Of a stretch of DNA of 64,000 nucleotides, positions 41,921-64,000 are shown one piece after another. How positions within the stretch are numbered: the stretch's first letter is position 1; each line of letters opens with the position of its first letter. The stretch lies in assembly GCA_020696385.1 (NCBI GenBank), contig JAEHCQ010000005.1:104311-168310 (forward strand). Reading direction: 5' to 3'. The position numbers and the translations under genes were made by a program. Below the pieces are notes generated by a model. That model made no database searches. It was not told the origin of the DNA and saw only the letters and a list, made by a program, of their open reading frames with translations. The DNA is from Methanobacteriota archaeon (GTDB taxonomy: Archaea > Thermoplasmatota > Thermoplasmata > SG8-5 > JAGLSY01).

Positions 41921-42898
41921 ATGTCAGTCTCTATTATAGGCACACGTGGGTGCGGAAAATCTACATTCATCGGACTTCTCCATCAGGGTATGGAAATGTA
42001 TACAAACAAGAATCCAGATAATTTCGTTTATTATGTAACTGCTGAAGTGGGTGATAAGATCCTGGACATAAGGAACAACCTGCTCCAGGGAGAATATCCC
42101 GCTGCCACCACTCGGCATCAGCTGGAACAATTGAGATTCCTCATGGGTTTCAAACCAGTGGGTGTGGAGAAGGTAGTCAATCTCGTTAAGAACTTCTCAT
42201 CCTTCGGCCAGTACGGAGATTACCTGGGTATGATCCTCAGTGTTTATGATATCGCGGGAGAGGATATCCAGGAATTCAAGATCAATAAGCAGGTGACGCA
42301 GATCCTGAAGCAGGTCTTCGAGTCCAATATCCTTGTTATCATTGTGGATTGTGCTAAGTTCACCAATGCCACCAGTGGCAGAAAATACGTGGACATGCTC
42401 GAATATGACAAGGAACTGGCTGTCATCATAGCTGCCTATGTCGAATACAGAAGCAAGGGCAAGTTCAAGGAGAAAGTGAACCCCATCTTCGTATTCGCAA
42501 AGATGGACGCACTGGACACAGAAATTGCCAGTAATTACTTCGACAAGCTGGAAAGAAAATACGATGATAAATACAATTACGATACAGGCAATGAGCTTAT
42601 GGAATCCTACCTCAGTGCTTCAAGAGCCGCAGTATATGGGGCGCAGAAAGTTGGCGTGCCATTGGAGACCGCGAAGTTCTTCTACAGCTGGGTTCAGGAA
42701 GACAAGATCGACGGAGTTGCCCAGGCTGGTGCACAGCATAAATTGATGATCACAAAGCCGGATGGCGGACATACAAGAAATGTATTCCCGGATCACATGT
42801 ACGAGGAGTTCCTGAATTACATCAGAACACTGTCATACATGTACTCGGATCCAAAGGAACATGTCGAGGATATCTTCGGTAAGGTCGGCGGCAAATAA
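41921..42898 (+). CDS. TRAFAC-class GTPase domain protein (double-GTPase-like)
   Basis: G1 GTRGCGKST, G2 PAATT, G3 YDIAGE, G4-like AKMD; 325 aa. Confidence 0.75.
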   Translation: MSVSIIGTRGCGKSTFIGLLHQGMEMYTNKNPDNFVYYVTAEVGDKILDIRNNLLQGEYPAATTRHQLEQLRFLMGFKPVGVEKVVNLVKNFSSFGQYGDYLGMILSVYDIAGEDIQEFKINKQVTQILKQVFESNILVIIVDCAKFTNATSGRKYVDMLEYDKELAVIIAAYVEYRSKGKFKEKVNPIFVFAKMDALDTEIASNYFDKLERKYDDKYNYDTGNELMESYLSASRAAVYGAQKVGVPLETAKFFYSWVQEDKIDGVAQAGAQHKLMITKPDGGHTRNVFPDHMYEEFLNYIRTLSYMYSDPKEHVEDIFGKVGGK

Positions 42899-42942
42899 GA
42901 ACATGCCAGTTCACGATCCCTATCTCAAAGGTGGTAGCGCGT

Positions 42943-45207
42943 ATGCAGGATGAACTTCATATAGGTGAATTCGACAATAATCCCTTCACAATAGAGGGCG
43001 GTAAATTCCTTACTGGCCGAACCGCGGTCATGGGGATGAGCGGCTCTGGCAAGAGTTATCTCATCGGAGTTCTGTGCGAGGAGCTTTGCAAGGCGGACCT
43101 TCCCTTCATCATTATCGATCCAGAGGGAGAATACAAGAGCCTGAAAGAGAAGTTCGATATTGTCTGGGCCTGTAATGACCCGGAAGCTGATGTGCTTCTC
43201 AATTTCCAAATATGCGAGAAGCTGGCAGAGGTCGCCGTCAATAAGAACCTCCAGCTTATTTTTGACACATCCGAGTCGAGTAATGAGTTCGACCTTGTGG
43301 AAGAATTCCTCAAACATTTTTACATTATCGAGGACAAGGTAAGAAAACCCATGCTTCTAATAATGGAAGAAGCAGACAGGTTCGCTCCCCAGAGCAAGGG
43401 CGATAGGATCGACGAGCTGATGGAAATAAGCAGGCGCGGTAGAAAGCGAGGCATCGGCCTTGTGATCGCCACCCAGAGACCTGCGATGGTGGACAAGAAT
43501 ATCTTATCCCAGTGCGGAAACCAGTTCATCGGCAGGCTGAGAACGGAGAATGACCTGAATGCGGTCAGCCTCTTCTTCAGGTCAAAGTCCACACTCAATA
43601 CAATTCCAGATCTGGAAGACGGCCATTTCTACTCAATGGGCGATATTTCTTCCACCATCCAGAACGTGCATATCAGAACAAGGGAGACCACACACGGTGG
43701 CGGAACTCCCGGAAGAGCCAGCAGTAAAAAGAATGAACTGAAAGACCTGAAAATATTCCAGGACAAGCCGATGGTGATGCCATCGACACCATCACCGCCA
43801 ATAGCTGGATCTCCTAATCTCGTGATCGAGGATGTTTTCCTCATCTACAATGATGGAAGATTGATCAATCATCAAACTCGTAGGCTCAAGCCGGATGTGG
43901 ACAATGAGATACTGAGCAGTATGTTCACGGCAGTCCAGAGCTTTATCAAGGATTCTTTTGGAAGTGGTGGCAGGACGAAGGTTCTCGAGCGTCTGGACTT
44001 TGGAGACAATTCGGTATTCATCGAGCATGGTGAGAATTGTTATCTCGCCATGGCCGCGATGGACATTGGGGAGGAGGTACTGCAGGAGCAGCTCAAATGC
44101 GCCAGCAGGGACATATCCAGAGAATATTCCGCCCCCTTGCGAAAGTGGAACGGGGACTTCGATGAATTCGCTGGTGTGGAATCTTATATCCAGAAGCTTC
44201 TGGCAGGAGAATACAAAAAAGGATGTATGCTCATCAATCCTTCGAAGGCTGCATCAACCGGATCAGAGATCTCGGCTTCAGACATGAAATCCAAAACCGA
44301 GCCAGTGGTGGAGAAAGCAGATGAAATATCTGATACAATTCAAGATCCGGGAAGCAAGCCAGCTCCCTCGATCATTAATAATATTAGCAGTAGTAATAAC
44401 AATAAAGGAAGAGATAAAATGGAAATAGATCATTTTGTGTGGTATCCTATCCACGGAAAGGGGTACCAGGATAAGCCAGTAGCGATATCGGGGGATTTCA
44501 ATCCAGGATTGTTCACCAATGTGTTCAAGAAGGAGTTCGCTCCGCTTATGATGAGTTACAGTCAGAAGGATTATCGTGGCTTCATGCTCTTTGACAAGCC
44601 CAATATACGCCATGTTCTCTTCTCCTTCATCTACCACAAGGTCATCGACGAATACGGTAGAAAAGGGGTGATCCATCATTCTGCCATCATTGACAGAAAG
44701 GATCTGCAGAGCGGTAAAGTTTCCTTATTCGACATCGAAGAGGCTATGAACAAGTTCGACGAGGCAAACCCCGCGCCAAAGGGAGACATACCGCCTTTGG
44801 AAGTTCCAGCCTATGAGCCTGGGCAATACAGATACCAGGACAAGATATTCAAGTACATTTCAAAGGCTGCTGTCGAAATACTGGCAACCAGGATGATGAC
44901 CGCCAGCCGTAACCGAACATCATTCAGATGCCAGGGCGCGGGCACGAAGGCCAGGAAGAATATCGCATTATATCTGGTCGAACTGCTGGGCTTCAGGGGT
45001 GGAATACCGATCTCATTCACGACAGAGAGACCGATATCGGCTGAATATTACGGCTTCTTCAATCTCGCGGTTACCGAGCGCGCGATAGCACCAGATGCGA
45101 ATGCCGAGGACTGGGCAGTGATCAACTGGGATGAATTGAATGTCGGCATGCCCAGGGTGGGCGGCAAAGAGGAAGTTTACAAATTAATTGATGATGCCTT
45201 CTCCTGA
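42943..45207 (+). CDS. HerA/DUF87-type ATPase fused to a longin/roadblock-like domain and a C-terminal GAP1-N-like domain
   Basis: Walker A GMSGSGKS, IDPEGEY, Walker B LLIMEEAD, RGRKRG, ATQRP; middle IEDVFLIYNDGRLI..LSSMFTAVQSFIKDSF; C-terminal DEYGRKGVIHHSAI; GTG start at 42931 also possible. Confidence 0.75.
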   Translation: MQDELHIGEFDNNPFTIEGGKFLTGRTAVMGMSGSGKSYLIGVLCEELCKADLPFIIIDPEGEYKSLKEKFDIVWACNDPEADVLLNFQICEKLAEVAVNKNLQLIFDTSESSNEFDLVEEFLKHFYIIEDKVRKPMLLIMEEADRFAPQSKGDRIDELMEISRRGRKRGIGLVIATQRPAMVDKNILSQCGNQFIGRLRTENDLNAVSLFFRSKSTLNTIPDLEDGHFYSMGDISSTIQNVHIRTRETTHGGGTPGRASSKKNELKDLKIFQDKPMVMPSTPSPPIAGSPNLVIEDVFLIYNDGRLINHQTRRLKPDVDNEILSSMFTAVQSFIKDSFGSGGRTKVLERLDFGDNSVFIEHGENCYLAMAAMDIGEEVLQEQLKCASRDISREYSAPLRKWNGDFDEFAGVESYIQKLLAGEYKKGCMLINPSKAASTGSEISASDMKSKTEPVVEKADEISDTIQDPGSKPAPSIINNISSSNNNKGRDKMEIDHFVWYPIHGKGYQDKPVAISGDFNPGLFTNVFKKEFAPLMMSYSQKDYRGFMLFDKPNIRHVLFSFIYHKVIDEYGRKGVIHHSAIIDRKDLQSGKVSLFDIEEAMNKFDEANPAPKGDIPPLEVPAYEPGQYRYQDKIFKYISKAAVEILATRMMTASRNRTSFRCQGAGTKARKNIALYLVELLGFRGGIPISFTTERPISAEYYGFFNLAVTERAIAPDANAEDWAVINWDELNVGMPRVGGKEEVYKLIDDAFS

Positions 45208-45572: not shown

Positions 45573-47078
45573 TCATTTCACAACTTGGAACTTGTAAACA
45601 GGATCCCCATCCAGTTCTTCCGCATTCTGTACTATCTCCGGAAGGTCATACAGTTTCCTGTTCTCATTGTAGATTTTGAGAAGCGGCTCCCAGTATCTGA
45701 TCGAATCCTGATACATGATCACATCATCATGCTTGAGTATCTGGCATATTGAGAAAAGACCACCGGGATATGTCCTGATGACATCGATGATCCTCTGATT
45801 CTCATTGTACCATCTGTAGAATTTATTGCCTTTATTCCACTTCATGATGAATTTTGTAAGATTGTTCCGGACATCTTCATCATTGGCGATCCAGACCATG
45901 ACCTTGACTATGTCATTGTCCGCCAAGAGGTCGATCTTCTTCACCAGCGGCCCGTAATCCTTATTGTCCCAGTCATTGAAGATATCCTTCCACCCTTCAA
46001 TGTTATCCGGGGCCTGGATACCATGCTCGGCGATAAAAGCAGCTTCCTCCGCTTGCTTCTTCGCCTCCTCGTCCATCTTCTTCTTTTCCTCAAGCTCCAG
46101 GATACGGAGTTTCTCTTCCTCGACCTTTCTCTTCTCCTCTTCGATCTTCATCTGAGCCTCTTCTTCCTTCCTGGCCAACTCCTTCTGCTCCATCTCAAGC
46201 CTCACTTGCTCCTTCCTCTCGGCGATCTTCAGGGCTTCCATCTCCATGGCCTGCCGTTTTTCCGCGGCAGCCTTGGCCTGGATCTCGATCTTGCGCCTTT
46301 CCTCTTCCTTGATCCTGAGGTGATGCTCCATCTTCAGGCGCTCTTCTTCTTTCGCCTTCAGAAGGCGACCGGCTTTGGCAGCGTCAGCCCGGCTTTTTTC
46401 GTATTCGATCTTCGCCCTGGCTTCCTCGCCCTTCTGGAGCTTCATCTTCATCTTAGCAGTGTGTGCTTCCTGCTTTTTCAGCTTGGCCGCGCTTTCATTC
46501 CTGAGCCTTTCCTCGACCAGAACCTGCGCCTGAAGCTGGGCTTTCAATCTTTCCTCTTCCATGAGCTTGGCCTTCAGCTCATGTTGGGCGCGTAGGTCTT
46601 CCTGCTTTTCCATGTCCAGCTCTTTTTTCAGGCGGATCTCCTCGGCCATCTTGAGCTCATGTTCTTTTCTCAATGCCTCGGCCTCTTCCTTCTCCTTGGC
46701 CCAGCGTGCGTCCCGCCTCTCTATCTTTTTCTTCAGATTGGTGATGTCGCGCTTGGCATCGCTCAGTTTGTCTGGGTCTTGTAATTTGTAATCAATTGCA
46801 TAAAAATCAGATTCCAGGGTGCGGATATCCAGTGCCCGGAGCTTCGTGCGCTGGGTGTTTATCTCCAAAAGGGCTTTCTCAAAACTTGCAAAGGCCTCCT
46901 CCACATCGGAAATTTTGCCATCATCTATGATCTTCGACAGACAGTTAACTACAAAACCCTGCTTTTTCCAGAATTCCAGCTTCACCCTGAAGCCATCCCT
47001 GGCCTCCATGTCCTCACGCTCTGTTGTTCTATTCTCCGCAACCCGATCGATTATTGATTTGGCACACATTTCAATCAC
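45573..47078 (-). CDS. Coiled-coil protein with globular N- and C-terminal domains
   Basis: ~250 aa E/K/R/A-rich helical core; no family recognised. Confidence 0.65.
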   Translation of the reverse strand: MIEMCAKSIIDRVAENRTTEREDMEARDGFRVKLEFWKKQGFVVNCLSKIIDDGKISDVEEAFASFEKALLEINTQRTKLRALDIRTLESDFYAIDYKLQDPDKLSDAKRDITNLKKKIERRDARWAKEKEEAEALRKEHELKMAEEIRLKKELDMEKQEDLRAQHELKAKLMEEERLKAQLQAQVLVEERLRNESAAKLKKQEAHTAKMKMKLQKGEEARAKIEYEKSRADAAKAGRLLKAKEEERLKMEHHLRIKEEERRKIEIQAKAAAEKRQAMEMEALKIAERKEQVRLEMEQKELARKEEEAQMKIEEEKRKVEEEKLRILELEEKKKMDEEAKKQAEEAAFIAEHGIQAPDNIEGWKDIFNDWDNKDYGPLVKKIDLLADNDIVKVMVWIANDEDVRNNLTKFIMKWNKGNKFYRWYNENQRIIDVIRTYPGGLFSICQILKHDDVIMYQDSIRYWEPLLKIYNENRKLYDLPEIVQNAEELDGDPVYKFQVVK

Positions 47079-47763: not shown

Positions 47764-49638
47764 TCAGAGAGCATTCCCACAGCTTGGGCAGGCTTTCCAG
47801 CCAGGCTGTGTCTCGGACCCACAATGTGGACAAGATGGTTTGCTGGACAGGGAACCTCCGCAAGCCGGGCAAGCTTTCCAGCCCGGCTGGGTGTCAGCCA
47901 TACAGCTTGGGCACTTATTGCCGCTCTGTTGCTGCTGAGCCGGCTGCACGCCTTGCTTGGATTGATCCACTGTGATGACATTAACTGGCTGCTGGCCAAC
48001 TCCATATCCTCCGCCCCCCACATATTGTGGTACATTCTGTTTGGATGATTCCATCATCTTCGCAGCCTGGCCAGTCATATCCACCTGATGATTTCTCTCG
48101 CGGTCCTCCGCGTCGCGGTAGGTGCTGATATTGTGCTTCTGACCCTCCGAGCGCATGAATTCCTCGGATGCCTCGCCTCCAACTGTTCCCAGCTGTCGCT
48201 TGGTAGCTTCCTGCTGTAGGGACTGCATCTGGATGGTCTTCTGATCGTACATTTTCTGAAGTATCTCCAATTTTTCAGTTGGAGCATCGATGATCTTCAT
48301 CTCCAGTTCGTGGATATCCGTTTGTAGCTGAGATATCTGGGCGTCAGCTGTCGTGACACCCATCTGCTGGGTATCCACATCCATCTTCTTCATGTCCTCG
48401 ACATGATCCTGCTCCTGAGCCTCCCTCATTCGCTTCGCTTCTTGAACCTGAGCAAATGCGTCCATGGCTATCTGAGCCTCGCCTTTTTCCTTGTCGATAT
48501 CAGCCTGATTCTGCGCCCTCTGGATATCCACATCGGTCATTCCAGCATCGCGTTGCTGGCGTATGTTCTCATCATGAGCCATACCGGACATGTCACGATC
48601 ATGCGTCTGGGCCATACTGTCCCTCTCCAGGGATGATGTCAATTGCATGGATGCCAGGCGATCGGCTCCCGCTTGCCCTCCGAAGGCAAGCGCCCATTCC
48701 TTCTCATTACTTGTCTTGTCAACTTCATAATCGCGATTCAGGATATTGATGCTGGCCTTCATGTCAAAGTCCTTGTCGAACTCCGCTTGTTCGAAGATCT
48801 GCGTCTGTTTCTTCTTGTGGGCTGCGAGTGCGTCACTGGCTGTCCTGTCAAAGACCATGTATAACTTGAGTAAGTTCAATCCCCACATTTCCATGGTCTT
48901 TCTTAGCTCGACCTCGGCCGTGGTCTCGATCTGCTTGATGAGATCCAGGTTCCCCTTGATATCACTGGCTTCAACCGCTGACAATTGTGGTGTGAGAACG
49001 CCTACCAGTGCCTCATCGTTTATCAATTCCTCAAGATCGGATTTGAAAAGGAACTTGCCAACTGCCATATCTGTCCTGTTCTGGAATGTGAGCTTCTTGA
49101 GTATGCCGCCAGTGAAGATATTCCTGTTCCTACCCCACCATGTGCTGTGCTTCTCATTCTGTGTTGGCTGGTATGGTTCGGCAGACCTCATCAGATTTAT
49201 GATCCTGGTGACATTGTTCTGGTTTATCTGGACACGCATGGTGCAGGTTCCCTTGACCTCTTCATTATCGCGTGAAAGTATACCTTGAACTTCCCATTCT
49301 GGCTGACCGTTCTGATCGACCTCGGGTTTTCCAGAAGGATCGAGCTTCCACATGCTCTTTCCGATCTGAAGGTTCATATCCATTGGAACCGTTGAAACAA
49401 ATAGAAGTTGAACGGATTCTCCTCCGCCCATCTTGGACCTGAACCAGTCGATGACCCCTTGCCTTGATACTTCCAGCTTGGTCTGTGTGAGAACATCCTC
49501 GATCTTGCCGTTCCTGATGTACATCACGGCTTCTCCAGGACCTACTATTGCTTCCTTTAAGAAATTCGGTATCTGGTCTCTGTCCACTAATTGAGCGATT
49601 ACTTCTTCGCCATCTATGTTATTCCACATTTGTATCAT
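47764..49638 (-). CDS. SPFH/band-7-like domain plus coiled coil plus double zinc ribbon protein
   Basis: IVGPGEAVMYIRNGKIED SPFH-type N-terminus, ELRKTMEMWGLNL, long coiled coil, C-terminal CPSC..CPACG..CPHCG..CPSCG. Confidence 0.75.
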   Translation of the reverse strand: MIQMWNNIDGEEVIAQLVDRDQIPNFLKEAIVGPGEAVMYIRNGKIEDVLTQTKLEVSRQGVIDWFRSKMGGGESVQLLFVSTVPMDMNLQIGKSMWKLDPSGKPEVDQNGQPEWEVQGILSRDNEEVKGTCTMRVQINQNNVTRIINLMRSAEPYQPTQNEKHSTWWGRNRNIFTGGILKKLTFQNRTDMAVGKFLFKSDLEELINDEALVGVLTPQLSAVEASDIKGNLDLIKQIETTAEVELRKTMEMWGLNLLKLYMVFDRTASDALAAHKKKQTQIFEQAEFDKDFDMKASINILNRDYEVDKTSNEKEWALAFGGQAGADRLASMQLTSSLERDSMAQTHDRDMSGMAHDENIRQQRDAGMTDVDIQRAQNQADIDKEKGEAQIAMDAFAQVQEAKRMREAQEQDHVEDMKKMDVDTQQMGVTTADAQISQLQTDIHELEMKIIDAPTEKLEILQKMYDQKTIQMQSLQQEATKRQLGTVGGEASEEFMRSEGQKHNISTYRDAEDRERNHQVDMTGQAAKMMESSKQNVPQYVGGGGYGVGQQPVNVITVDQSKQGVQPAQQQQSGNKCPSCMADTQPGWKACPACGGSLSSKPSCPHCGSETQPGWKACPSCGNAL

Positions 49639-50156
49639 TATTTCCACCCCCTCAAGAAATCTTCCCTATCCTTGTAAGAATTCCTTGAACCGGTAATATA
49701 CTGGCGAAGGCTTCTGAGTTCCTTCACGGCATCAATTTCATCGCCATTCATTATCATTCCCTCGATAACTCCCGTGGCTTCGGTGACATTGACGATATTT
49801 TCCAAAATGTTGAGATCGAACTCCACCAGGGTCTTGAGATCACCTTCACCTGGCGATCTTGATTTGTTAGTTGAAAAGAAACTGTACTGATGGCCAACCA
49901 CGGACATTGTGATATCATTGGAGAAGATATCCAGCTCGTCCTTGACCTTTTTAAGTGAGTTTATGGAGTCCGTATCCTTCTTGTCATAGAGTATGTCCAG
50001 GATATTCCGCGTATTCTTCACGGACTTGTCGATCTCGGCCATCAACTTCTTTCTGACCAGATTGTCATCCTCTTTTACCTTATCCTTTCTGTATCCCGTG
50101 TACCCGGACACCATTTTGCAAACAGAAGTTATCGCAGTGATCAGAACCATATTCAT
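49638..50156 (-). CDS. Conserved helical hypothetical protein coupled to the SPFH gene
   Basis: SGYTGYRKDKVKEDDNLVR, YSFFS, LVEFDLNIL; TAATG stop/start overlap with the SPFH gene. Confidence 0.7.
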   Translation of the reverse strand: MNMVLITAITSVCKMVSGYTGYRKDKVKEDDNLVRKKLMAEIDKSVKNTRNILDILYDKKDTDSINSLKKVKDELDIFSNDITMSVVGHQYSFFSTNKSRSPGEGDLKTLVEFDLNILENIVNVTEATGVIEGMIMNGDEIDAVKELRSLRQYITGSRNSYKDREDFLRGWK

Positions 50157-50213: not shown

Positions 50214-52103
50214 ATGGAGGTTGAATACTTGATCCATAAAGGGTTCGGAAGGACAAGAGCCATTGTCATATTATGCATGACCTTTCTTTTATTCAGTGGT
50301 CTCTCTCCACTTATGATACATAATGCCAGTGCCAATACAGTCTCTGGTTACATATACCCGGATGAATACGTGATCTATTACATCGATGTCGATTCCTATA
50401 CATATATCGACATCTCGGTAAGCTGGTATGACAGCTCCAATGATATCGATCTCTACCTCTACGACGAGTCTTCCACATTGGTTGACGATAGTGAACTTAC
50501 AAGTACAAACACCGAGTCCATATACTACTATCCATCAAGCACTGGCTCTTACGCCCTTTACATATATGGATACAGTATCTCCGGCAGTGAATATTATACC
50601 CTTTACTGTAACTTCTATGCCTCCCTGAGCACGGTGGACGATACACCAACGACCACGGATGACAGCTACGAGCCAGATGATTCATATTCGTCCGCATCGT
50701 ACATATCAGATGGCAGTGTCCAATCACATAGTATTCTGGATGGTGGGCTGGATGTCGATTGGGTGACCTTCACCATATACGAGACCAGTGATGTGGTCAT
50801 TGAAACATCAGGTTCAAGCGGCGATACCCAGATATATCTGTACGATGACTCGGGAGTGCCATCCGTCTACTCCGATGTGAATGATGATGGAGGAACTGGC
50901 TCCTTTTCAAGAATCAGCAAGAATTTCCTGGCCTCGGGCACTTATTATGTTAAGATAATAGAATATGGCCAGGATCAGGAAATATCATCATATAGTGTTG
51001 AATTTTCAGCCGAGCCCAGCCTCGATCTCGGTATTGGCGACATCGAGAACCTGGTCTATCTGGACTATATCTGCTTTTTCATATTCTTTATAATTTTCAT
51101 AGTGATAGTTGCGGGAATAAGATCATCCCGCAAGAAGAAAAAGAAAAAGAAGCAAAGGAATCTGGAGCAACAGATCCAGTCCCAGCATTATCAATCTCAA
51201 CAACAATACCAGCAGCAACAGTCTAGACAAGCTCAGCAATATGCTCCACAGCAGGCTCCGCGTGTTCAGCAGCAACAAGTCAAACAGACTCAGCAGACCC
51301 AGGGGGTTCAGCAGACCCAGCAGGTCCAGCAAACCCAGCAACCACAATACCAGCAACAATACCGAACCCCAGTGCCAGCACCAGTAGTATCCACTCGGCA
51401 AGATACTGCTAAAGAAGATCGTTCAAGGCAAGAGGCGGAGCAGAGGCAGAGGGACGAGAGAGAAAGGAAGGAGAGGTTCGAAGCTGACAAACGAGTGAGG
51501 GAAGAGAATGAGAGAAAAGCCAGGGAGGAAAAAGGACGCCTGGCTCGGATCGAGGAAGAGAAACAGAGATCAAGAAGCTATGACACACCTCAGGCCGAGA
51601 TGGACAGGCGAGCTACACAATACGAATCCATGGCCAGTATGCAGGAGAAGGAAAGCGAGAACATCCACGCGATGCTGCATACCAGTGAGGAATATGGAAG
51701 GCCATTACCTCCACCGCCACCACTTGATATGCCTCCGGCAGATGATCTCCATTCCCAGCCGAGCGAGAAGATGACCAAAGCTCTGGAAGATTCATGCAAG
51801 CTCATCATGCCAACATATCTTGAGCCGGATACCACATCCGAGATAATCATAGACATTGAGAATGATTCTGGAATGAACCTGGGCAATGTCACTGTCGACC
51901 TCTCTGATCTGCAGAAATATTTCGAAATTCAGGATAAGATAGAATTCCCGGGTATTCGAAATGGCATGACCCTGAGAGAAGATGTCAAATTCAAACCCAA
52001 ATACGATGAGGGATCCTTCCCCGTGGTGGTGTCCATAGTTTCAGAAGGTTCCACTGTGAAATTAAATTACACGATCAAGGTCGGAGGCACGGAGATATAT
52101 TAG
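50214..52103 (+). CDS. Single-pass receptor-like protein: two PPC-like extracellular domains, TM, Q-rich and coiled-coil linker, Ig-like IKVGGTEIY domain
   Basis: Signal ..ASA; NDIDLYLYD and DDSYEPDD..DVDWV..GDTQIYLYD PPC motifs; TM plus RKKKKKKK; C-terminus IKVGGTEIY. Confidence 0.8.
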   Translation: MEVEYLIHKGFGRTRAIVILCMTFLLFSGLSPLMIHNASANTVSGYIYPDEYVIYYIDVDSYTYIDISVSWYDSSNDIDLYLYDESSTLVDDSELTSTNTESIYYYPSSTGSYALYIYGYSISGSEYYTLYCNFYASLSTVDDTPTTTDDSYEPDDSYSSASYISDGSVQSHSILDGGLDVDWVTFTIYETSDVVIETSGSSGDTQIYLYDDSGVPSVYSDVNDDGGTGSFSRISKNFLASGTYYVKIIEYGQDQEISSYSVEFSAEPSLDLGIGDIENLVYLDYICFFIFFIIFIVIVAGIRSSRKKKKKKKQRNLEQQIQSQHYQSQQQYQQQQSRQAQQYAPQQAPRVQQQQVKQTQQTQGVQQTQQVQQTQQPQYQQQYRTPVPAPVVSTRQDTAKEDRSRQEAEQRQRDERERKERFEADKRVREENERKAREEKGRLARIEEEKQRSRSYDTPQAEMDRRATQYESMASMQEKESENIHAMLHTSEEYGRPLPPPPPLDMPPADDLHSQPSEKMTKALEDSCKLIMPTYLEPDTTSEIIIDIENDSGMNLGNVTVDLSDLQKYFEIQDKIEFPGIRNGMTLREDVKFKPKYDEGSFPVVVSIVSEGSTVKLNYTIKVGGTEIY

Positions 52104-52131: not shown

Positions 52132-52950
52132 ATGAAAGTCGCGTTTAGATCAGATGTCGGAAAACTAATGCAGATCAATGAGGATATTGCAGGATGGGTG
52201 ACCTTGAGGACATCCGGGATGTCAGAGATGTTGAATACCCCTGGTACCTCTGAAATGTCTGTGATATCAAAAATATCACAGCAACCAGGCATTGATCGAA
52301 TTGATATTCTTTTCGTATCGGATGGAATGGGCGGCCATAAGAAAGGAGATGTGGCAAGCAGGATAGCCACCCAATACCTGACATACCTCGTCCAGAACGC
52401 CATATCCCGATCAGAGGGCGACATAGTTCAGGAGCTGGTCGTGAAACTGCCTGGCTACATGAAGAACATAAACACTCATTTGAGATCCCAGGCAAGCGGC
52501 AATCCAGACCTAAGTGGAATGGGATGCACGCTCACTGCCGCCATAATGATCGGAAACAGCATGGTGATAGTCCATGCTGGTGATAGCCGGCTTTACCACA
52601 TAGCTGACGGGCGATTGCGCCAGGTGACAAAGGACCATTCTTTTGTTCAAGAGCTTCTTGATAAAGGTGAGATACAGCCAGATGAGGCTTTTGACCATCC
52701 AAAAAAGAATAAAATTCATACCGCCCTCGGCCCCAAGGATGACATAAATGCTGATGCCTTTGTCGAGGTCTGGGAAAGTGGTACATTACTCTTCTGTACT
52801 GATGGCCTGAATGACATGCTGAGAGATCACGAGATACTGGATATCGTGAATGCCAATCCAGATCCCGAAGATATGTGCGAGAAATTGGTCGAGGCGGCTC
52901 TTGAAAAGGGCGGGCATGATAATGTCAGTGTGTTGGTTGCCAGTAAATGA
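52132..52950 (+). CDS. PP2C/Stp1-family Ser/Thr phosphatase
   Basis: SDVGK...NED, VSDGMGGH, MGCTL, HAGDSRLY, TKDHS, CTDGL, GGHDNVS. Confidence 0.95.
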   Translation: MKVAFRSDVGKLMQINEDIAGWVTLRTSGMSEMLNTPGTSEMSVISKISQQPGIDRIDILFVSDGMGGHKKGDVASRIATQYLTYLVQNAISRSEGDIVQELVVKLPGYMKNINTHLRSQASGNPDLSGMGCTLTAAIMIGNSMVIVHAGDSRLYHIADGRLRQVTKDHSFVQELLDKGEIQPDEAFDHPKKNKIHTALGPKDDINADAFVEVWESGTLLFCTDGLNDMLRDHEILDIVNANPDPEDMCEKLVEAALEKGGHDNVSVLVASK

Positions 52951-53048: not shown

Positions 53049-53630
53049 ATGGCCTATGTCATGTACTACATATTCGTGAAGAAGAACCCCGCGCTTGAAC
53101 ACCTGGGTGTCGGCAAACAGATGGACAATATCCTCAAGCCCACACAGCAACAACAGCAACATCAACAGCAGCATCCGAATTATCAGACACAACCACAACA
53201 TCAAGCATACCCTGGCTCTGCACCACCTGTGAGCCAGGGGCAGCGCGTGCAACCGCAACAACAGCGACCAGCTCCCTCACCCCCTGGAGAGGGGATGTCC
53301 AGTATCAACCTGAAAGATCATTATTCGATCCAATTACCGCATTTTATCAATTCTGGCATGACTGAATCGGTCATAGTCACCCTGTATAACAATACCAGCA
53401 CGGAAATAGATGACATAAGTATCGATCTTTCAGACATGACGGATTACTTCGATATCGAGGGAGAGGTGAAAGACTATCGATTGAAACCAGGAGCCGAGAT
53501 CGTCAAGACCCTGAGGATTAGGCCAAAATTTGAAGAAGGTGTGTTCCCATTCAAGATAAAAATAAGTACTGGTTCGATCTATGTAGAAGACGAGCACTCG
53601 ATCAAGGTCGGGGGCACGGAGATCTATTGA
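53049..53630 (+). CDS. Membrane-anchored Q-rich protein with IKVGGTEIY domain; true start probably near 52980
   Basis: Frame open upstream to 52968, encoding a hydrophobic helix; Q/P-rich linker; same C-terminal domain as 50214 and 53640. Confidence 0.8.
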   Translation: MAYVMYYIFVKKNPALEHLGVGKQMDNILKPTQQQQQHQQQHPNYQTQPQHQAYPGSAPPVSQGQRVQPQQQRPAPSPPGEGMSSINLKDHYSIQLPHFINSGMTESVIVTLYNNTSTEIDDISIDLSDMTDYFDIEGEVKDYRLKPGAEIVKTLRIRPKFEEGVFPFKIKISTGSIYVEDEHSIKVGGTEIY

Positions 53631-53639
53631 GGTAGGAAA

Positions 53640-54500
53640 ATGAGCAATCAAAAAGAATTCACAGGAAGTTGGATACTATTGGTCCTATTGTTCATCATAT
53701 TCTTTCCACTTGGGATTATCTATTTCTTTGTCATGTTGAAAGATAGAGGTTCAGCCTATGCTCCTCCATATTATCAGACAGTCCAGACCAATCAGACAAG
53801 AAATGCATATGCACCACCTCAATATCAGCCGAGTACCCAGCAACCACCAGCACAGTATTCTGGACAGAGCACCCAGAGACCATCCGGTCAAAATACCAAT
53901 CAGACAAGAAGTGCACAACAGGGTCAGTATTCACAGCCCTCACAATCATCACAGCCAGCCCAGAATGTGCCTCAGTACGAACAGCCAGCTCAATACAGCC
54001 AGCCACAGTACAAAGCTCCACAATACAATTCACCTCAGCAAACGAATCAAATGCAAAAACCACCAGCCTACACAACATCGCAGACAACAAGCCAGAGCCC
54101 ACCAAATGTGGCTAGAGCTCCTGCGGCCCAGCAGGCTCCAATAGCAGTAAGGCCTCAGAAAATCATGTCCGAGGGCGATATCAGCTCCCTTTACAGTCTC
54201 CAGGTTCCCAGCTTCATGGATCCTGACATGACGGAAGAGATCATGATCAGGCTGAACAATGACTCTGGCGATGATATCGAGAACATGCACATAGATTTCT
54301 CGGATCTCAGAAGCTTTTTCGACATAGATGAGGATGTCAATATCCCCTACTTTGGAGATGGTGTCGTACTGGAGAGAAGGGTGAATATCAAGTCGAAGGA
54401 AAGCTCTGGCAGCTTTCCCGTTAGAGTGAAAATATCCGCGAATGGAAAGACAGTCACGGAGAGGTTCACTATCAAAGTTGGTGGAACCGAGATATATTAA
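53640..54500 (+). CDS. Membrane-anchored Q/P-rich protein with IKVGGTEIY domain
   Basis: FTGSWILLVLLFIIFFPLGIIYFFV TM, Q/P/S/T/Y-rich linker, same C-terminal domain. Confidence 0.85.
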   Translation: MSNQKEFTGSWILLVLLFIIFFPLGIIYFFVMLKDRGSAYAPPYYQTVQTNQTRNAYAPPQYQPSTQQPPAQYSGQSTQRPSGQNTNQTRSAQQGQYSQPSQSSQPAQNVPQYEQPAQYSQPQYKAPQYNSPQQTNQMQKPPAYTTSQTTSQSPPNVARAPAAQQAPIAVRPQKIMSEGDISSLYSLQVPSFMDPDMTEEIMIRLNNDSGDDIENMHIDFSDLRSFFDIDEDVNIPYFGDGVVLERRVNIKSKESSGSFPVRVKISANGKTVTERFTIKVGGTEIY

Positions 54501-54543: not shown

Positions 54544-56967
54544 TCACTTATTCGTGTTGAAGGCGACTCCATCCTGCAAATTGATGTCACCGCCGCCTTC
54601 CCCAATGTTCGACTTGTAGATCACACTGTCCTTAATATCGACATTGTAGGTGACCTGGGTCACCAGCATCGCCTTTTCCAGCCGGATCGCTCTGTCAATA
54701 GATTCAAACTGTCCCTGCAGGAATTTTTCTGCAATATCCGGGTCTATGGAATAACCATCGAATCTGAACTCGATGGTGCCATCCTCTTTTCTCCAACCAC
54801 CGCATAACATCAGGAAACTGAGCGGACTCTTCGTGGGCTTTCCAGCGTATAGAAGCTGGAAACTGTTCACGTCCTCGTACTTGCCCACGCAATGGAGATT
54901 GCTGCAAGCATCGGATAATCGAGATCTGGCCTTCTCTATCGTGATATCACTGTACATGATCTGACGCGATGCCCTTGGCAAAGTCTTGATGGACATCATG
55001 AATTCATGCTCTCTCATCTCCAGTGGCTCGATGAGCGGCATGATGTTTCCAGTGTCCACCACGGGCGCGTTTATGCGCCTTTTCTTGCCCATGTGATCGT
55101 GATATGAAATGTCAAAGTGTATCTTGGCCTTCATCGCTCTCTTGGCCTTCATGATGAAGGTTATTGCCTGCGATTCATTGGAACCCAGGTATGGAATATC
55201 CCGGACTCGCGAATCTGGCTGTAATAATTCCAGGCCTTCGGGTATGTCCAGTGTGATAGATACCCGATTGTGAGTGTATGGAGATACGTTATTCAGCTTA
55301 AGCTGAACATTGATCTTATCACCATCAATGGTCCTGTCAACCTCGGCATCCAGACCTCCTGAACTGGGTCTGAAGCTCTCGCCGTATCTGAAGTACAGGT
55401 CCTCGTCACGGACCAGTCTTCCGCCAACTCTGACTTTCATCGGAACCGTGAAGTCCCCGCCAGAGCCTGCATCCTTCAGGGTCATCTTTCTTTCATGGTA
55501 TCTTTCCTGACCTGGCATCAGATCGTATTTGAGGTTCAAATCCTTATCACAGGTGAATAATTCACCCGCGCCCACGTAATCGACAACGATATTCTTCCAT
55601 GGAAGATCCGAATTGTTCTTCACTGTCGATCGGAGATCAAGCTGATTGCCATTCCAGTCCCATGATGTGGTGATCTCCAGATCATTGATCTCCTCATAAA
55701 ATTCCTGTATCTTGTTCTTGTCGCTGATGAATTCAAGGTGAATGTAAGGCTCTCTGGGCTTATCCGGATTATAGACCAGCCAGATATCGTCCCCGTCCTG
55801 AAGTTTTTTGAATTTACCGGAAATTACACGAGCCTTGTTCAGGAAAGTTCCATTGTGACTGTCGCAATCGGTTATCACCCAGTCCCCGCTTCCCGCGGCA
55901 TTCATGATCTCCGCGTGTTTCGGGCTGGACACGTATTTCGCAGGCAGGTATACATCATTCTGCGGTGACTTGCCGATCCTGTTCTTCGATTTTTCCAGAA
56001 AGAACACCGTCCCGGGCTTCACACTAGGGTCCTGGCTGTTTATCACTTTGATGAGCGGTTTGAATCGAATTATATCCTCGATACCGGACAGCGTGACCTC
56101 CACATCCCTCAATCTGAATCTCAATTGAGGGTGGCGCTGGGTACTCCCCTGTATCAGGTTGCTGAATATACTAGCTCTGCGAAGACTGAGATAATCCTTG
56201 TCATTTGCCAGGAATGGTGGGGATGAGCTGGATAGGAGGAAATACAATGTCGCGCCCAATGAGAAGATATCATTGGCCTTCGTGGGCTTTGTCCTCGCCA
56301 TGACTTTTCCGGGCGGAGGTGGGGGAGGGAAATTATGGTTATTGTTGCTATGTCCAGGAGGTGGTGGTGGGAATCTGGAATTGTTATTGTGATTATTGTG
56401 ACCACCATTCTGTGAAAGCTCTGGTGGTGTGTATGAGCCATGGGACACATTGGCAGTCACGAGCTCATCATGATGGACATTATAGGCAGTTCCGAAGTCA
56501 ATGAGAATGGGTACCTTGTTCGGGCCCAGCAGGATATTTTTTGGGCAAATATCCCTGTGGATTATTCCCTCACCATGCATGTATGATATGACATCGCACA
56601 GTCTTTTCAAAATGTCCAGGGCTTCCTCATTGGTCGCTTTACAGCAATCATACACCTCTGCCAGGCTCTTTCCCTCGACATAATTCATCACAAGACCATT
56701 GCTCTTGTGAATGTACTCCACGAACTTCACGATCTGGGGATGATCCAGCATGGCCATGACATTGGCTTCCTGCCTGATGGAATCACAATATAGATCATAC
56801 TTATGCTTGACATCATGCTTTGGGAGTTTCAGGACCAGCTTATCATCACTGCCCACGGCCTTGACAACATATAGTATGCTCATGCCGCCGCGACCCAGCT
56901 CGCGCTCGACCACGTATCTTTCCTCTACGATGTCGCCTTTGGACAGAACTCTCGAACCATATAGCAC
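54544..56967 (-). CDS. Hanks-type Ser/Thr kinase plus FHA plus Ig-like and adaptin-appendage-like C-terminal domains
   Basis: LGRGGMS, LVLK, HRDICPKN, DFG, YTPPE, DIFSLG; FHA RIGK...VSSPKHA...DCDSHNGTFLN...LQDGD. Confidence 0.9.
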   Translation of the reverse strand: MLYGSRVLSKGDIVEERYVVERELGRGGMSILYVVKAVGSDDKLVLKLPKHDVKHKYDLYCDSIRQEANVMAMLDHPQIVKFVEYIHKSNGLVMNYVEGKSLAEVYDCCKATNEEALDILKRLCDVISYMHGEGIIHRDICPKNILLGPNKVPILIDFGTAYNVHHDELVTANVSHGSYTPPELSQNGGHNNHNNNSRFPPPPPGHSNNNHNFPPPPPPGKVMARTKPTKANDIFSLGATLYFLLSSSSPPFLANDKDYLSLRRASIFSNLIQGSTQRHPQLRFRLRDVEVTLSGIEDIIRFKPLIKVINSQDPSVKPGTVFFLEKSKNRIGKSPQNDVYLPAKYVSSPKHAEIMNAAGSGDWVITDCDSHNGTFLNKARVISGKFKKLQDGDDIWLVYNPDKPREPYIHLEFISDKNKIQEFYEEINDLEITTSWDWNGNQLDLRSTVKNNSDLPWKNIVVDYVGAGELFTCDKDLNLKYDLMPGQERYHERKMTLKDAGSGGDFTVPMKVRVGGRLVRDEDLYFRYGESFRPSSGGLDAEVDRTIDGDKINVQLKLNNVSPYTHNRVSITLDIPEGLELLQPDSRVRDIPYLGSNESQAITFIMKAKRAMKAKIHFDISYHDHMGKKRRINAPVVDTGNIMPLIEPLEMREHEFMMSIKTLPRASRQIMYSDITIEKARSRLSDACSNLHCVGKYEDVNSFQLLYAGKPTKSPLSFLMLCGGWRKEDGTIEFRFDGYSIDPDIAEKFLQGQFESIDRAIRLEKAMLVTQVTYNVDIKDSVIYKSNIGEGGGDINLQDGVAFNTNK

Positions 56968-59314: not shown

Positions 59315-59534
59315 AAGTGGTCTTTAGTTAGTATCAATATTTGACATATTTACAATATCATAATTCACTTTAGTCTGGCTTTAAACATTAATTATTGAAA
59401 GATCAACTGTCGATGCCCTTCCTATGTAGGCAAAACGTTTATATTATAGTGTACATTGAATCTTAACAATGGTTACTAACAATAGTTAACCCGCGTCAAT
59501 AATTCAAAACCTGTAAAATATGGAGGAGAAAAGC

Positions 59535-62500
59535 ATGAAAAGATCGATTGCAATAATTTTAGCAATAATAATGACAGCTACTAGTATGATCGCGGCTACG
59601 AACGTAGTCTCTGCGAATACTGGCGATCCTGTTGAACTACCACCTGGCAGTGGATATTGGGAAACTGCCGGAGATTGGTTCGTGGATACGTCAACTTCGT
59701 TTAGCAATGTGGAAATATGGGTTCAGGGAGACCTGACTGTAAATGGGGCCTCTGCCTTATTGACCCTCACCAACTGCCTTATCACCATAGAAGGTGACCT
59801 GATAATTGAGAACGCGGGAACCCTGACACTCAGGGGCACCGAGGTTCGAATATTACAGCCTGGCCTTGTTGATGGTGTGTATAATATCTATGTCAGGACC
59901 GGTGGAGTCTTCACCGCAACAGACATTGACGGTATACCATCCACTGATGATGGCTCACTCATCACTGCCGTAGGCACCACTTATGAATACGATTTCACTG
60001 TAGAGACCAATGCTGGTGCTTTCAGCCTTGTGAACTCCGAGATATCACAGTGTGGATACAATGATGCAAATCCGGGTCTCACCATCGAGATCAATAATGT
60101 CTTGATGAGAGATTCACACATATTTGATTCATACAATGGTACGACCTTCGATGGTGCAACACTCACATCGATATATCTCAAGAACATGAAATATGAAGAT
60201 AATGTCAATGGAGTGGCAGTGCATCATGGTGCTGTTGTCACATTTGATGATTCCTGGTTGCACAGCTCTTCGACCTATGAGGTGGCTGTGATCGATTCAG
60301 ATGTCTATATCTATGACACCACTATAGATTCAGATCATGACTCTGAGAGAGGAATTTGGCTATACAACAATGGAACTGCAAATATCTACAATTCAAGGAT
60401 CATGGATGCCAATGATTACAATATATATGTGCAATATTACTCATACCTGAACATCCAGGACTCGAACGTATTCTCTGCATCAGATGATGGTATATACATC
60501 GACGATTGGTCAGACGCAGATATATCCAATAATGAAATATTCAGCAATACAGATGCGAACATCTATCTGGATGATTTCTCAACTGCCGAGATCTTCAATA
60601 ATGACCTATTCGCAAATGGCAATAGTGACGAAGGTGTTTGGGTAAATGATGGTTCCTATGCCAACATATATAATAATAAGATATGGGACAATGGTGAAGA
60701 AGGTATTCAGGTAGAGGATGCAAATGCATCTATAACGAATAACTGGATATACTCCAATAACTGGGATGGAATTTATCTCAATGATGCTGATGAATGTTAT
60801 ATTGCAGATAATGAGATAATTGAAAATGCCGCAAGCACAACTTATGCTGGTATTCAGGTCGATGGGGGTTCCATGTGGAATGATATAGAGAACAATCTCA
60901 TCCAGGAATCTTACTACTACAATATACGCCTTGAGGGAAATTCCCACAACAACACCTTCTCTGATAACATGATCTATGACATCACAAGTACTGGAAGCAC
61001 ATACGCTGGTGTGTACATTAATGGAGCAGGAACAAGGGACAATACCTTTGATTCCAATGCCATAAATATGAATTATTATGGTATCTATATGATCAATTCT
61101 CCATACAACTACTTTGTCGACAATAACATAGACCTCAATGATTACAGAGGTGTGTATCTGAACAATGCGGATTTCAACCTATTCGAGTACAATACGATCA
61201 CAAGGAGTGGAAATGGTGGAGCCAACCACGGTCTTTACATAGAGCAGACCTCTGGAGACAATGAATTCTATTACAACTCATTATCCAACAGGGTGAATAT
61301 TCTTTGTAACAATGGAACTGTTGTGGACAATACCGAATTCGACTACAACTACTATTCGGATTACACCGGATTCGACACTACAGCTGACTGGATAGGCGAT
61401 ACAGGAGACTATACAATTCCTGGAACAACAATGCATTACGACGCTCACCCACAGACAAAGATCAGCCCCACTGGCGGCAATGCCACTACATATGCAAGTA
61501 TCGGAACCTCATTGAATATCGACACTTCAAGGGACATACACCTGCCTGCTCAAACACCAAATGCAGGAAGCAGGACAATACCACAGGTCGGTATCTGGTA
61601 TGAATACAACCTCTACATGAATGATGATGATAACCCGAATAATGACAATGTCTACTTTCACGGCGATGGCCCAGATAGATCCTTCGTTGATGGATATCAC
61701 GCTGGCAATGTCTTTGAGTTCGAGGATTGCGATTATATCAGATTCGACAGCCTGAGCATTGACAATGGTAGTGGAGACGGTATCTACTGGGAATTCTACG
61801 AGGGCGAAGATGTTCAGATCTGGGATACAGATTATAACCTGAATCCACAGATAGACATCACCAACTGTGAGTTCGAAAGCAGTGGAAGCGACGGTATCGA
61901 GATAGGGGAGTTCGATAATTATGGATTCCAGTACCTGTCAGATACAGGCGACGCATTCCAGCCAGTGAATGTCTTTGACCTATTGGGCAACCAGCACATA
62001 TTCTGGGTAGACCCATGGGATGACAATGGTGCCCAGATATGGTACATGATGACTGATCTGAATGGTAATGTCCTCATTAATGGAACAGCGATCACGCCTT
62101 ACAACAATGATTATGACTTAAAGAGGCCGATCCCACTTGTGGACTCCCAGAACCATATAAATCTAGTATGGAAAGATGACAGGTTCACACACGAATCTAT
62201 TGACACAGCACATGACCTGTTCTTCATGAGATTGAACCCATACCTGGATGACCGTGATGGTAGCCCGGCAAACCCGGATGTGATCAAGGTCGTTTATGAC
62301 ACACAGATAATCACCTTCCCATTGGACGATGATGGATATATCAGCTACGAGAACGAGCTGCAGATGGCCGGAGCGGACATTGACAGCGATGACAATATCC
62401 ATTTGTTCTGGTGTGAAGAGGACATCGAGGATTGGTTATACTACAATAAGATAGACCGAAACGGAAACACCCTCATTGGTCCAAATGAGCTCATATTCTA

Positions 62501-64000
62501 TGACGGCAACACTGCAAATTCCAATGCACGTCCAGACCTGACAGTTGACAATAATGACAACCTGCATTTGGTATGGACTGATGAGTACTTGACTGGCGGT
62601 GACGACAATGACGGAGATGATGAATTATTCTACGCCATGTTGGACAAGTTCGGTAATAAGCTCATTGACAGGACCATGATCTCCAATGATGATGATTATG
62701 TATCTCAGAGAGGTCAGGTAATGGTAGACTCGCAGAACATCGTGCATGTTGTATGGAATGACAATGGAAATGACAATGATGGCCCAGAGGTCATGTACAC
62801 CAAATTCAACCCATACGTGGATGACATGGACGGCGACAGGGCGATGATGGCAAACATGAGGCTGGTCCCGAACAAGTACATATCTGGATATGGTGTCAAC
62901 ACAGACGATGAGAAATCCCGACATCCATATACAGCAATGGACTCCAATGACGAGATCCATGTGGTATGGCATGAAAAGGACAGAGATTATGAAGTGACAT
63001 ATGCCAAACTGGACAATGATGGAAACATTTTGGATCGATTCGACATAACACCGTATGATCTGATCGACGATCCAACATATGGCGATGAACACAAGATAGC
63101 TGTTGATCAGAACAATATGCCACACATTGTCTGGGGAGATGACTCCAACTATGATATCGCGTACTACAACCCATACAATACCATGTACGGTTCCCTTACC
63201 ATGAACATCAATGACTGTAACTTCATTGACCAGACTACAGATGGTATCTACATAGATGAGACATATTTCATTGATCTGAACTTGAACATCAACAATTGTC
63301 TTTTCGAGGACAATGATGATGATGGAATTGAATTGGATTGGATCGTTCAGAGAGAACACGAAACATCTACCATAAACATCCAGAACAGTGTATTCATCGA
63401 TGATGATGTATCAACAGACACTGGTATCTACATCAACAATATCGAAGGTGGAGACGCTGTAGTGAACATAAGGAACAATGAATTCTACGGCGATGATCAG
63501 ATGGATGCCATATACTGGGATTATACCAATGATGATGCAGAAGATGATTCAGCAGATATACCAATTGGCTTTGTGTGGTTGAATGTGGAGGACAATTACT
63601 TCTACGAGTGTGATTATGGTCTGTACATATACGAATTCTACTTCACGGACTACCTCATAAACTTCAACTACAATGTCATGGAATTGATAGATGATGAGGC
63701 CATATATGTTGACTACTTCGAGTCAAGTGCAGGAACCTTCAATATCATAGGAAATGATTTGAATCAAGTGGACGACGGTTTCTACTTTGACTATCCAGCA
63801 TACTTCGATGATGCGCACGATATGGGTTATACCGAGGCCATGATGAGGCCGACATATCTGAACTTCATCGACAATACCATGTTGGGTGTGGAATACTACG
63901 GAATATATGTCTATGAGAACTACTACGCACCATTATATGTGAACATCGACAACTGTCACATCGAAGGAACTGGAGATGATTTCAGTAGTTTCTATGGTAT
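59535..64000 (+). CDS. Giant secreted parallel beta-helix (pectin-lyase/NosD-like) protein with inserted beta-propeller; 3'-truncated (absent from ORF track)
   Basis: ggagg RBS, signal MKRSIAIILAIIMTATSMIAATNVVSA; many GIY/NN.I beta-helix repeats; same frame confirmed at spot checks and no stop reported before the window end. Confidence 0.85.
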   Translation, partial: MKRSIAIILAIIMTATSMIAATNVVSANTGDPVELPPGSGYWETAGDWFVDTSTSFSNVEIWVQGDLTVNGASALLTLTNCLITIEGDLIIENAGTLTLRGTEVRILQPGLVDGVYNIYVRTGGVFTATDIDGIPSTDDGSLITAVGTTYEYDFTVETNAGAFSLVNSEISQCGYNDANPGLTIEINNVLMRDSHIFDSYNGTTFDGATLTSIYLKNMKYEDNVNGVAVHHGAVVTFDDSWLHSSSTYEVAVIDSDVYIYDTTIDSDHDSERGIWLYNNGTANIYNSRIMDANDYNIYVQYYSYLNIQDSNVFSASDDGIYIDDWSDADISNNEIFSNTDANIYLDDFSTAEIFNNDLFANGNSDEGVWVNDGSYANIYNNKIWDNGEEGIQVEDANASITNNWIYSNNWDGIYLNDADECYIADNEIIENAASTTYAGIQVDGGSMWNDIENNLIQESYYYNIRLEGNSHNNTFSDNMIYDITSTGSTYAGVYINGAGTRDNTFDSNAINMNYYGIYMINSPYNYFVDNNIDLNDYRGVYLNNADFNLFEYNTITRSGNGGANHGLYIEQTSGDNEFYYNSLSNRVNILCNNGTVVDNTEFDYNYYSDYTGFDTTADWIGDTGDYTIPGTTMHYDAHPQTKISPTGGNATTYASIGTSLNIDTSRDIHLPAQTPNAGSRTIPQVGIWYEYNLYMNDDDNPNNDNVYFHGDGPDRSFVDGYHAGNVFEFEDCDYIRFDSLSIDNGSGDGIYWEFYEGEDVQIWDTDYNLNPQIDITNCEFESSGSDGIEIGEFDNYGFQYLSDTGDAFQPVNVFDLLGNQHIFWVDPWDDNGAQIWYMMTDLNGNVLINGTAITPYNNDYDLKRPIPLVDSQNHINLVWKDDRFTHESIDTAHDLFFMRLNPYLDDRDGSPANPDVIKVVYDTQIITFPLDDDGYISYENELQMAGADIDSDDNIHLFWCEEDIEDWLYYNKIDRNGNTLIGPNELIFYDGNTANSNARPDLTVDNNDNLHLVWTDEYLTGGDDNDGDDELFYAMLDKFGNKLIDRTMISNDDDYVSQRGQVMVDSQNIVHVVWNDNGNDNDGPEVMYTKFNPYVDDMDGDRAMMANMRLVPNKYISGYGVNTDDEKSRHPYTAMDSNDEIHVVWHEKDRDYEVTYAKLDNDGNILDRFDITPYDLIDDPTYGDEHKIAVDQNNMPHIVWGDDSNYDIAYYNPYNTMYGSLTMNINDCNFIDQTTDGIYIDETYFIDLNLNINNCLFEDNDDDGIELDWIVQREHETSTINIQNSVFIDDDVSTDTGIYINNIEGGDAVVNIRNNEFYGDDQMDAIYWDYTNDDAEDDSADIPIGFVWLNVEDNYFYECDYGLYIYEFYFTDYLINFNYNVMELIDDEAIYVDYFESSAGTFNIIGNDLNQVDDGFYFDYPAYFDDAHDMGYTEAMMRPTYLNFIDNTMLGVEYYGIYVYENYYAPLYVNIDNCHIEGTGDDFSSFYG

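Follow-up and report, generated by a model that had tools for sequence, protein, structure and literature searches.

Introduction

Appendage domains (“ears”) are interaction hubs of eukaryotic vesicle coats and possess aromatic and basic ligand pockets that bind motifs of the DPF/W, FxDxF or WxxF type. Here, we describe a putative module of this kind at the C-terminus of an archaeal protein kinase, encoded in a stretch of 64,000 nucleotides (in the following called the window) from assembly GCA_020696385.1 (contig JAEHCQ010000005.1, positions 104,311 to 168,310 of the forward strand), which belongs to the Thermoplasmata. All coordinates refer to this window.

Ear-like modules of archaea have already been reported (Makarova et al. 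2024; Eme et al. 2023), and their occurrence there has served as an argument that components of the endomembrane system are older than eukaryotes. The ear platform itself was placed in the TBP-domain superfamily in the text of Brindefalk et al. 2013. In the text of Makarova et al. 2024 “adaptin appendage” regions composed of an immunoglobulin-like (Ig) and a TBP part are reported from archaeal loci of the endosomal sorting complex required for transport (ESCRT), termed “Meth_adaptin”, together with proteins combining SPFH, coiled coil and zinc ribbon; WD40/PQQ plus Ig proteins occur in “Halo_adaptin” loci, and ESCRT loci of other clades contain kinases and PP2C, the kinases showing a transmembrane segment, Ig repeats and a PCI-like end. 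The corresponding family arCOG15284 is listed there for methanogens of the Methanosarcinales type, Archaeoglobi and Loki-/Thorarchaeota, with no member of Thermoplasmata in 32 of its 34 rows. For Asgard archaea the text of Eme et al. 2023 states that AP Pfam domains are “not fused to each other”. A fusion of kinase, FHA domain and ear is not described in the texts of these three papers, their figures or supplements may contain one. Since archaeal ear-like modules have been published, the novelty of the present case is a new fusion in a new lineage with no ESCRT gene found, and not a new kind of module.

Taking the predicted fold and the recurrence of the module together with the neighbouring genes and the intact motifs of the kinase and FHA domains, we regard it as fairly probable that residues 539-779 of this protein represent an ear-like module of a mobile archaeal family, docking an apparently active cytosolic kinase–FHA protein on its partners.

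A protein kinase with a predicted ear-like module

The minus-strand open reading frame (ORF) 54544..56967 (stop codon included) begins with GTG and encodes 807 amino acids. Judged from its Pfam domain matches and orthologues it is a real gene, and the ORF list, Pfam and a hydropathy scan give the order Ser/Thr kinase, FHA, Ig and appendage-like module for the whole protein. For the C-terminal residues 530-807 an AlphaFold2 model was built (mean predicted local distance difference test, pLDDT, 85.3; predicted template modelling score, pTM, 0.72) as well as a second one for residues 640-780 alone (pLDDT 87.2, pTM 0.78). The first model displays a β-sandwich (model residues 10-119, pLDDT >90) followed by a helix, a strand, a helix, four strands and a long helix. 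This corresponds to an appendage-like β-sandwich subdomain in residues 539-648 (55024..55353) and an appendage-like platform subdomain of the TBP-like or helix-grip type in residues 649-779 (54631..55023). The sequence-only reading had proposed an Ig sandwich and an α/β segment at 54682-55353, and both are found in the model as a run of β-strands (~539-648) and as the α/β segment (~649-779). These coordinates represent exactly residues 539-762, with the module itself reaching ~17 residues further to ~779, and all nine quoted peptide strings are present in the given order within residues 552-750 of the translation. The tryptophan of the ear motif named there, P..(I/M)....F...W..L, is not evident in the module sequence.

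Comparison of the model of residues 530-807 with the PDB by Foldseek supports the adaptin/COPI ear-like interpretation proposed from the sequence. Ranks 1-16 are all AP2 α/β2 ears or COPI coat chains aligned across both subdomains (E 1.4e-10 to 1.1e-6, 228-247 aligned columns). Behind them come a Fanconi core chain and subunits of the BBSome and, after these, matches of the Ig part only. When the platform alone was compared with 48,161 representative PDB chains independently of Foldseek, five appendage platforms outranked all other helix-grip proteins, and Foldseek with the same model has the β2 ear in first place (E 2.8e-4). This means that the platform subdomain, whose absence would have spoken against an ear, is present and that among solved structures the ear platforms come closest to it. 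The N-terminal Ig-type sandwich is recognized by its fold, with Pfam below threshold. In the large subunits of AP or of the COPI F-subcomplex the ear is carried on a hinge behind a HEAT solenoid; here, the N-terminal part of the protein consists of kinase, FHA and Ig domains instead. In summary, the prediction supports folding of kinase residues 539-779 as a two-part ear-like module.

In the same platform search the next scores after the ear platforms belong to KA1 domains (Chk1 9.6, AMPK 9.2, SAD 8.9, MARK 8.5), the Roco COR domain (9.3) and proteins of the START/Bet v 1 type (<=8.8). This leads to the main rival explanation, namely that the α/β domain is a KA1-like regulatory tail that would fold back to autoinhibit the kinase and/or bind acidic membrane lipids, with the preceding Ig domain as a spacer. 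We consider it unlikely. KA1 domains of MARK, SAD, AMPK and Chk1 are β-α-β4-α domains of ~100 residues at the end of kinases; they score below the ears, are devoid of the first helix and strand and are not preceded by a sandwich. The present module is also found without kinases.

The catalytic part of the protein is a Hanks-type protein kinase domain (residues ~18-300, 56068..56916, its C-terminal limit set by eye) that matches Pkinase (PF00069) with 110.9 bits over residues 18-190 (cut-off 31.7). Lys, HRD, Asn and DFG are the names of the catalytic motifs in Hanks-type kinases, and here the Gly-rich loop, Lys47, HRD137-139, Asn144 and DFG157-159 are invariant across three orthologues (alignment A2). 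The FHA domain (residues 330-396, 55780..55980) matches PF00498 with 51.8 bits (cut-off 20.7). It is followed by a first Ig-like sandwich (residues ~425-527, 55387..55695; alignment A3), which is located between FHA and the ear-like module and is a paralogue of the C-terminal Ig tag of neighbouring gene products described below (profile match E 5.2e-30). The hidden Markov model (HMM) of the module matches this first Ig domain weakly. The kinase domain contains a low-complexity insert rich in Asn, His and Pro (residues 186-232, 56272..56412) that is missing from orthologues P0003 and P0004 in alignment A2; its 47 residues with two poly-proline runs are located between the PPE motif and the next helix. 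In a hydropathy scan no transmembrane-like segment was detected in the kinase, which is therefore cytosolic. Since the kinase shows neither a transmembrane nor a signal segment, we discarded a surface-exposed (CARDB-like) reading of its Ig domains.

The ear-like module is followed by a tail of 28 residues (780-807, 54547..54630) that is conserved in the rows of alignment A1 and predicted to be disordered (pLDDT <50; disorder comprises the last 34 residues of the model). It carries two copies of the motif (V/I)x(I/V)xD(S/G)(V/I)(V/I/A)x(K/R/N)(S/T) and possibly serves as an additional docking peptide. When 13,035 ORFs of the genome were scanned in six frames, this motif was confined to the kinase ORF. 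Across the module family it is conserved better than the fold itself, and it also stands alone in a protein with RING and double zinc ribbon of genome G023 (L010:7734-9284).

Relatives and distribution of the module

Orthologues over the C-terminal region are P0003 (68% identity) and P0004 (46%), P0003 being the sole relative of this region recovered by a word-index homologue search. An exhaustive HMMER search with residues 530-807 revealed 36 cluster representatives at E <=1e-3 (5 at 1e-10, 2 at 1e-30), most of them matching query residues ~17-275 and thus sandwich and α/β domain as a single unit. In MAFFT alignments the module columns align cleanly even with full-length relatives. A Pfam scan comprised 33 of the 36 representatives, with the very long P0009, P0036 and P0037 omitted as they match in the Ig part only. 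The module is fused to WD40 propellers (4), PQQ/FG-GAP propellers (3), HEAT repeats (1), TPR (1), zinc ribbons (6), a TPM domain (1) and kinase–FHA (1, P0004), and 15 representatives have no Pfam family. It is a mobile archaeal unit that has been joined to many scaffolds.

Its own genome (2.28 Mb in 50 contigs, 94.5% complete) contains one copy. The module occurs in 6 of 61 related genomes, its own included, and in 26 of 401 genomes sampled from the phylum (19 of 162 genera), and a relative is known from a metagenome-assembled genome (MAG) of Methanosarcinales. As a kinase fusion it was encountered solely in its own genome, in G001 of the same genus and in the clusters P0003 and P0004. A search of species-representative genomes based on alignment A2 gave Thermoplasmata archaeon L002 as sole match, on a short contig without gene context. 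In a metagenome scan 14 loci matched the kinase domain only, none of them with the module.

Two fusions with HEAT repeats were observed. The 584-residue frame L044:11612-13363 (G239:C168) of a non-Asgard archaeon unites HEAT repeats with an Ig-plus-platform module in the manner of a miniature large adaptin subunit; its HEAT part matches Adaptin_N weakly (27.1 bits, cut-off 37) and the module match holds one internal TGA. In P0006 from a Methanosarcinales MAG HEAT repeats, CARDB, the module and a zinc ribbon are combined.

On the level of sequence the sandwich (residues 543-623) resembles Alpha_adaptinC2 with E 6.6e-4 and 20.4 bits, which is below the cut-off of 27.6, and this family is matched at E <=1 by 4 of 34 aligned module members. 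In the orthologue P0004 residues 613-714 match B2-adapt-app_C, the platform of the β2 ear, with 25.5 bits and thus above the curated cut-off of 22.6.

Gene neighbourhood and the shared Ig tag

Directly beside the kinase four genes are encoded on the plus strand. N1 (50214..52103; Pfam, alignment and hydropathy) has a signal or transmembrane segment, PPC domains, a further transmembrane segment, poly-K, a Q-rich linker and a C-terminal Ig tag. It is followed by a protein phosphatase of the PP2C type (52132..52950; PF13672 50.7 bits, PF00481 44.1 bits), by N2 (53049..53630; alignment), a Q/P-rich linker plus Ig tag with a weak match to AP3B1_C (E 0.026), and by N3 (53640..54500; alignment, profile and hydropathy) with an N-terminal transmembrane segment, a Q/P-rich linker and again the Ig tag. 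The three tags are homologous (29-44% identity) and share the identical C-terminus IKVGGTEIY, which in the six-frame scan was detected only in N1, N2 and N3 apart from one internal, probably chance match. All three Ig-tag genes of the genome are located within 5 kb of the kinase and beside PP2C. N3 and the kinase gene are in convergent orientation. The same arrangement of a tag gene and the kinase is found in G001 (C392), and in this genome too the PPC-tag gene precedes a PP2C gene.

The tag family occurs in 7 of 61 related genomes, is not covered by Pfam and yielded no relative in a word-index homologue search. In more distant genomes tags terminate unrelated membrane proteins on a charged or Q-rich tether (L041:7002-8150; L027; L042:5956-7638). 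Carriers in relatives comprise an EMC3/TMCO1-like insertase beside SecY, a LamG-fn3 surface protein and polytopic proteins, one of which appears RnfD/NqrB-like by eye, and the consensus of the tag end is IKVGG-T/K/M-E/D-I/V/S-Y/F. The idea that the tag end GGTEIY is a phospho-Thr site for the FHA domain is weakened by this comparison, as G017 and G021 have K or M in place of Thr and G036 does not have the motif at the protein end.

Further upstream the sequence-only reading had named GTPase and SPFH neighbours. The P-loop GTPase is supported (41921-42898, plus strand), with a DO-GTPase2 score of 26.7 bits just below the cut-off of 27, and SPFH stays a lead only (Atlas score 0.92, no Pfam match) in a 627-residue protein with coiled coil and double zinc ribbon (47764-49647, minus strand). 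Along its entire length the GTPase shares 28% identity (E 1e-33) with GTPase L044:7756-8721, which is located among four module genes in G239. It was found in 11 of 401 genomes of the phylum, namely in 7 of 26 that bear the module versus 4 of 375 others. A role as fixed module partner is weakened because 5 of the 7 co-occurrences come from one genus and a contig is shared only in G000 and G239. Four genes separate the GTPase from the kinase cassette: a 758-residue HerA-like ATPase (42931-45207, plus strand) with a middle part that the sequence-only reading took as longin-like, a 501-residue E/K-rich coiled-coil protein (45573-47078, minus strand), the 627-residue protein and a 172-residue conserved helical protein to which Atlas assigned no family (49638-50156, minus strand), the start of the 627-residue gene overlapping the end of the latter. 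Elsewhere in the window we observed two very large surface proteins, one of >1,493 residues with beta-helix/NosD repeats and D/N-rich segments that runs off the window (59520-63998, plus strand) and an STT3 oligosaccharyltransferase of 2,404 residues fused to many CarboxypepD_reg-like domains (12530-19744, minus strand).

Putative function and alternative explanations

As ears act as interaction hubs (textbook knowledge; Makarova et al. 2024) we infer a docking role, in which the ear would serve as protein–protein docking module bringing kinase and FHA domains to partners. The likeliest partners would be N1-N3, two of them membrane-anchored, either through the shared and presumably cytoplasmic Ig tag at the end of their long Q/P-rich linkers or through motifs in these linkers. 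The kinase might then phosphorylate the docked partners, the FHA domain could read the resulting phospho-sites and the adjacent PP2C would erase them, and this system appears to work without ESCRT.

Several points weigh against this reading. Template modelling scores (TM-scores) to the solved ears are 0.31-0.38 with a global root-mean-square deviation of 10-11.4 Å, versus 2-3 Å per subdomain. As both subdomains match individually and the global fit is poor, their mutual angle in the model apparently differs from that in eukaryotic ears, this angle coming from a prediction with pTM 0.72. Neither phmmer with residues 421-807 nor the profile of alignment A1 recovered an appendage among the PDB sequences (the latter with no match at E <=10), and phmmer with the module of P0004 gave one chance match only. 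Homology with eukaryotic ears thus rests on the fold and on one marginal Pfam match in an orthologue, and the sequence support for the ear assignment is faint. Docking and binding to the Ig-tag proteins are argued by analogy. Finally, conservation of gene order within one genus is weak evidence, and the Ig-tag genes of the more distant genomes G017, G021 and G036 do not adjoin kinases, so the link between tag and kinase may be local to one genus.

One could also suppose a convergent look-alike, i.e. a generic E-set Ig domain followed by a generic helix-grip domain that neither descended from the adaptin/COPI ear nor shares its working mode. Such convergence appears improbable, because only ears and the related pairs of GAE domain and platform from the BBSome can be aligned with sandwich and platform in this order and because appendage platforms lead the helix-grip proteins in the PDB-wide comparison. 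Moreover, the B2-adapt-app_C match passes its own cut-off in P0004 and the sandwich matches Alpha_adaptinC2 weakly but repeatedly.

Alternatively, the module might be an ESCRT accessory and serve a Vps4/ESCRT-III machine as its cargo or adaptor component, comparable to the archaeal “Meth_adaptin” loci and those that contain kinases. In favour of this, the text of Makarova et al. 2024 places such modules, kinases, PP2C and proteins with SPFH, coiled coil and zinc ribbon in ESCRT neighbourhoods, and the window holds the double-zinc-ribbon protein with its SPFH lead. However, no match to Snf7, Vps4_C or MIT was found in the 94.5%-complete genome, nor by Pfam in the window. Among 14 control genomes Snf7 was found in 1 (below cut-off), Vps4_C in 4 and MIT in 3, and with so weak a control for Snf7 a divergent ESCRT-III could be missed. 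Altogether we regard an accessory role in ESCRT as very unlikely.

Docking of the kinase by its ear, which we favour, could be part of a wider scheme. The locus would then be a self-contained, ESCRT-independent “adaptor and tag” system, in which diverse membrane proteins bear a common cytoplasmic Ig tag on a long disordered tether, the ear recognises the tag or tether motifs and kinase, FHA and PP2C switch the clustering, sorting or turnover of these proteins through phosphorylation. This extension is quite doubtful at present. If true, it would represent a prokaryotic precursor of cargo selection by ears under kinase control, with PPC and LamG surface proteins, an EMC3/YidC-like insertase and the (by eye) RnfD/NqrB-like protein as tag carriers in this genome and its relatives. 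An ear-like module alone does not demonstrate trafficking in this organism. The present case nevertheless extends the module beyond the ESCRT loci of Asgard archaea and methanogens to a Thermoplasmata genome with no ESCRT gene found, in which it is joined to an enzyme of phospho-signalling. It also offers a tractable handle on ligand binding by archaeal ears, as the kinase is soluble and adjacent genes encode its candidate partners and phosphatase.

Relation to known systems

The eukaryotic ears of AP2 α/β2, AP4 β4 and COPI β/γ (1b9k, 1w80, 1e42, 3h1z, 2mj7, 1r4x, 1pzd) are ~10-16% identical in sequence to the module. They are located on the hinge of a HEAT-solenoid subunit, whereas the present module is attached to a kinase–FHA protein without hinge, shows a different subdomain angle in the model and occurs in a prokaryote without known coat. 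The GAE plus platform pairs of the BBSome (BBS9, BBS7, BBS1; 6vbu, 6xt9) belong to a eukaryotic ciliary coat complex and have no kinase.

The closest described archaeal counterparts are the arCOG15284 modules. According to the text of Makarova et al. 2024 they are, like the present one, Ig-like plus TBP regions of archaeal proteins, often with zinc ribbons, and with kinase, PP2C and SPFH-like genes their loci are of the same kind as the locus described here. In contrast, they are situated in Vps4/ESCRT-III loci, and the kinases described there have an N-terminal transmembrane segment besides Ig repeats and the PCI-like end instead of FHA and a full ear. The sole link of our module to arCOG15284 is an indirect one, given by its relative in the Methanosarcinales MAG.

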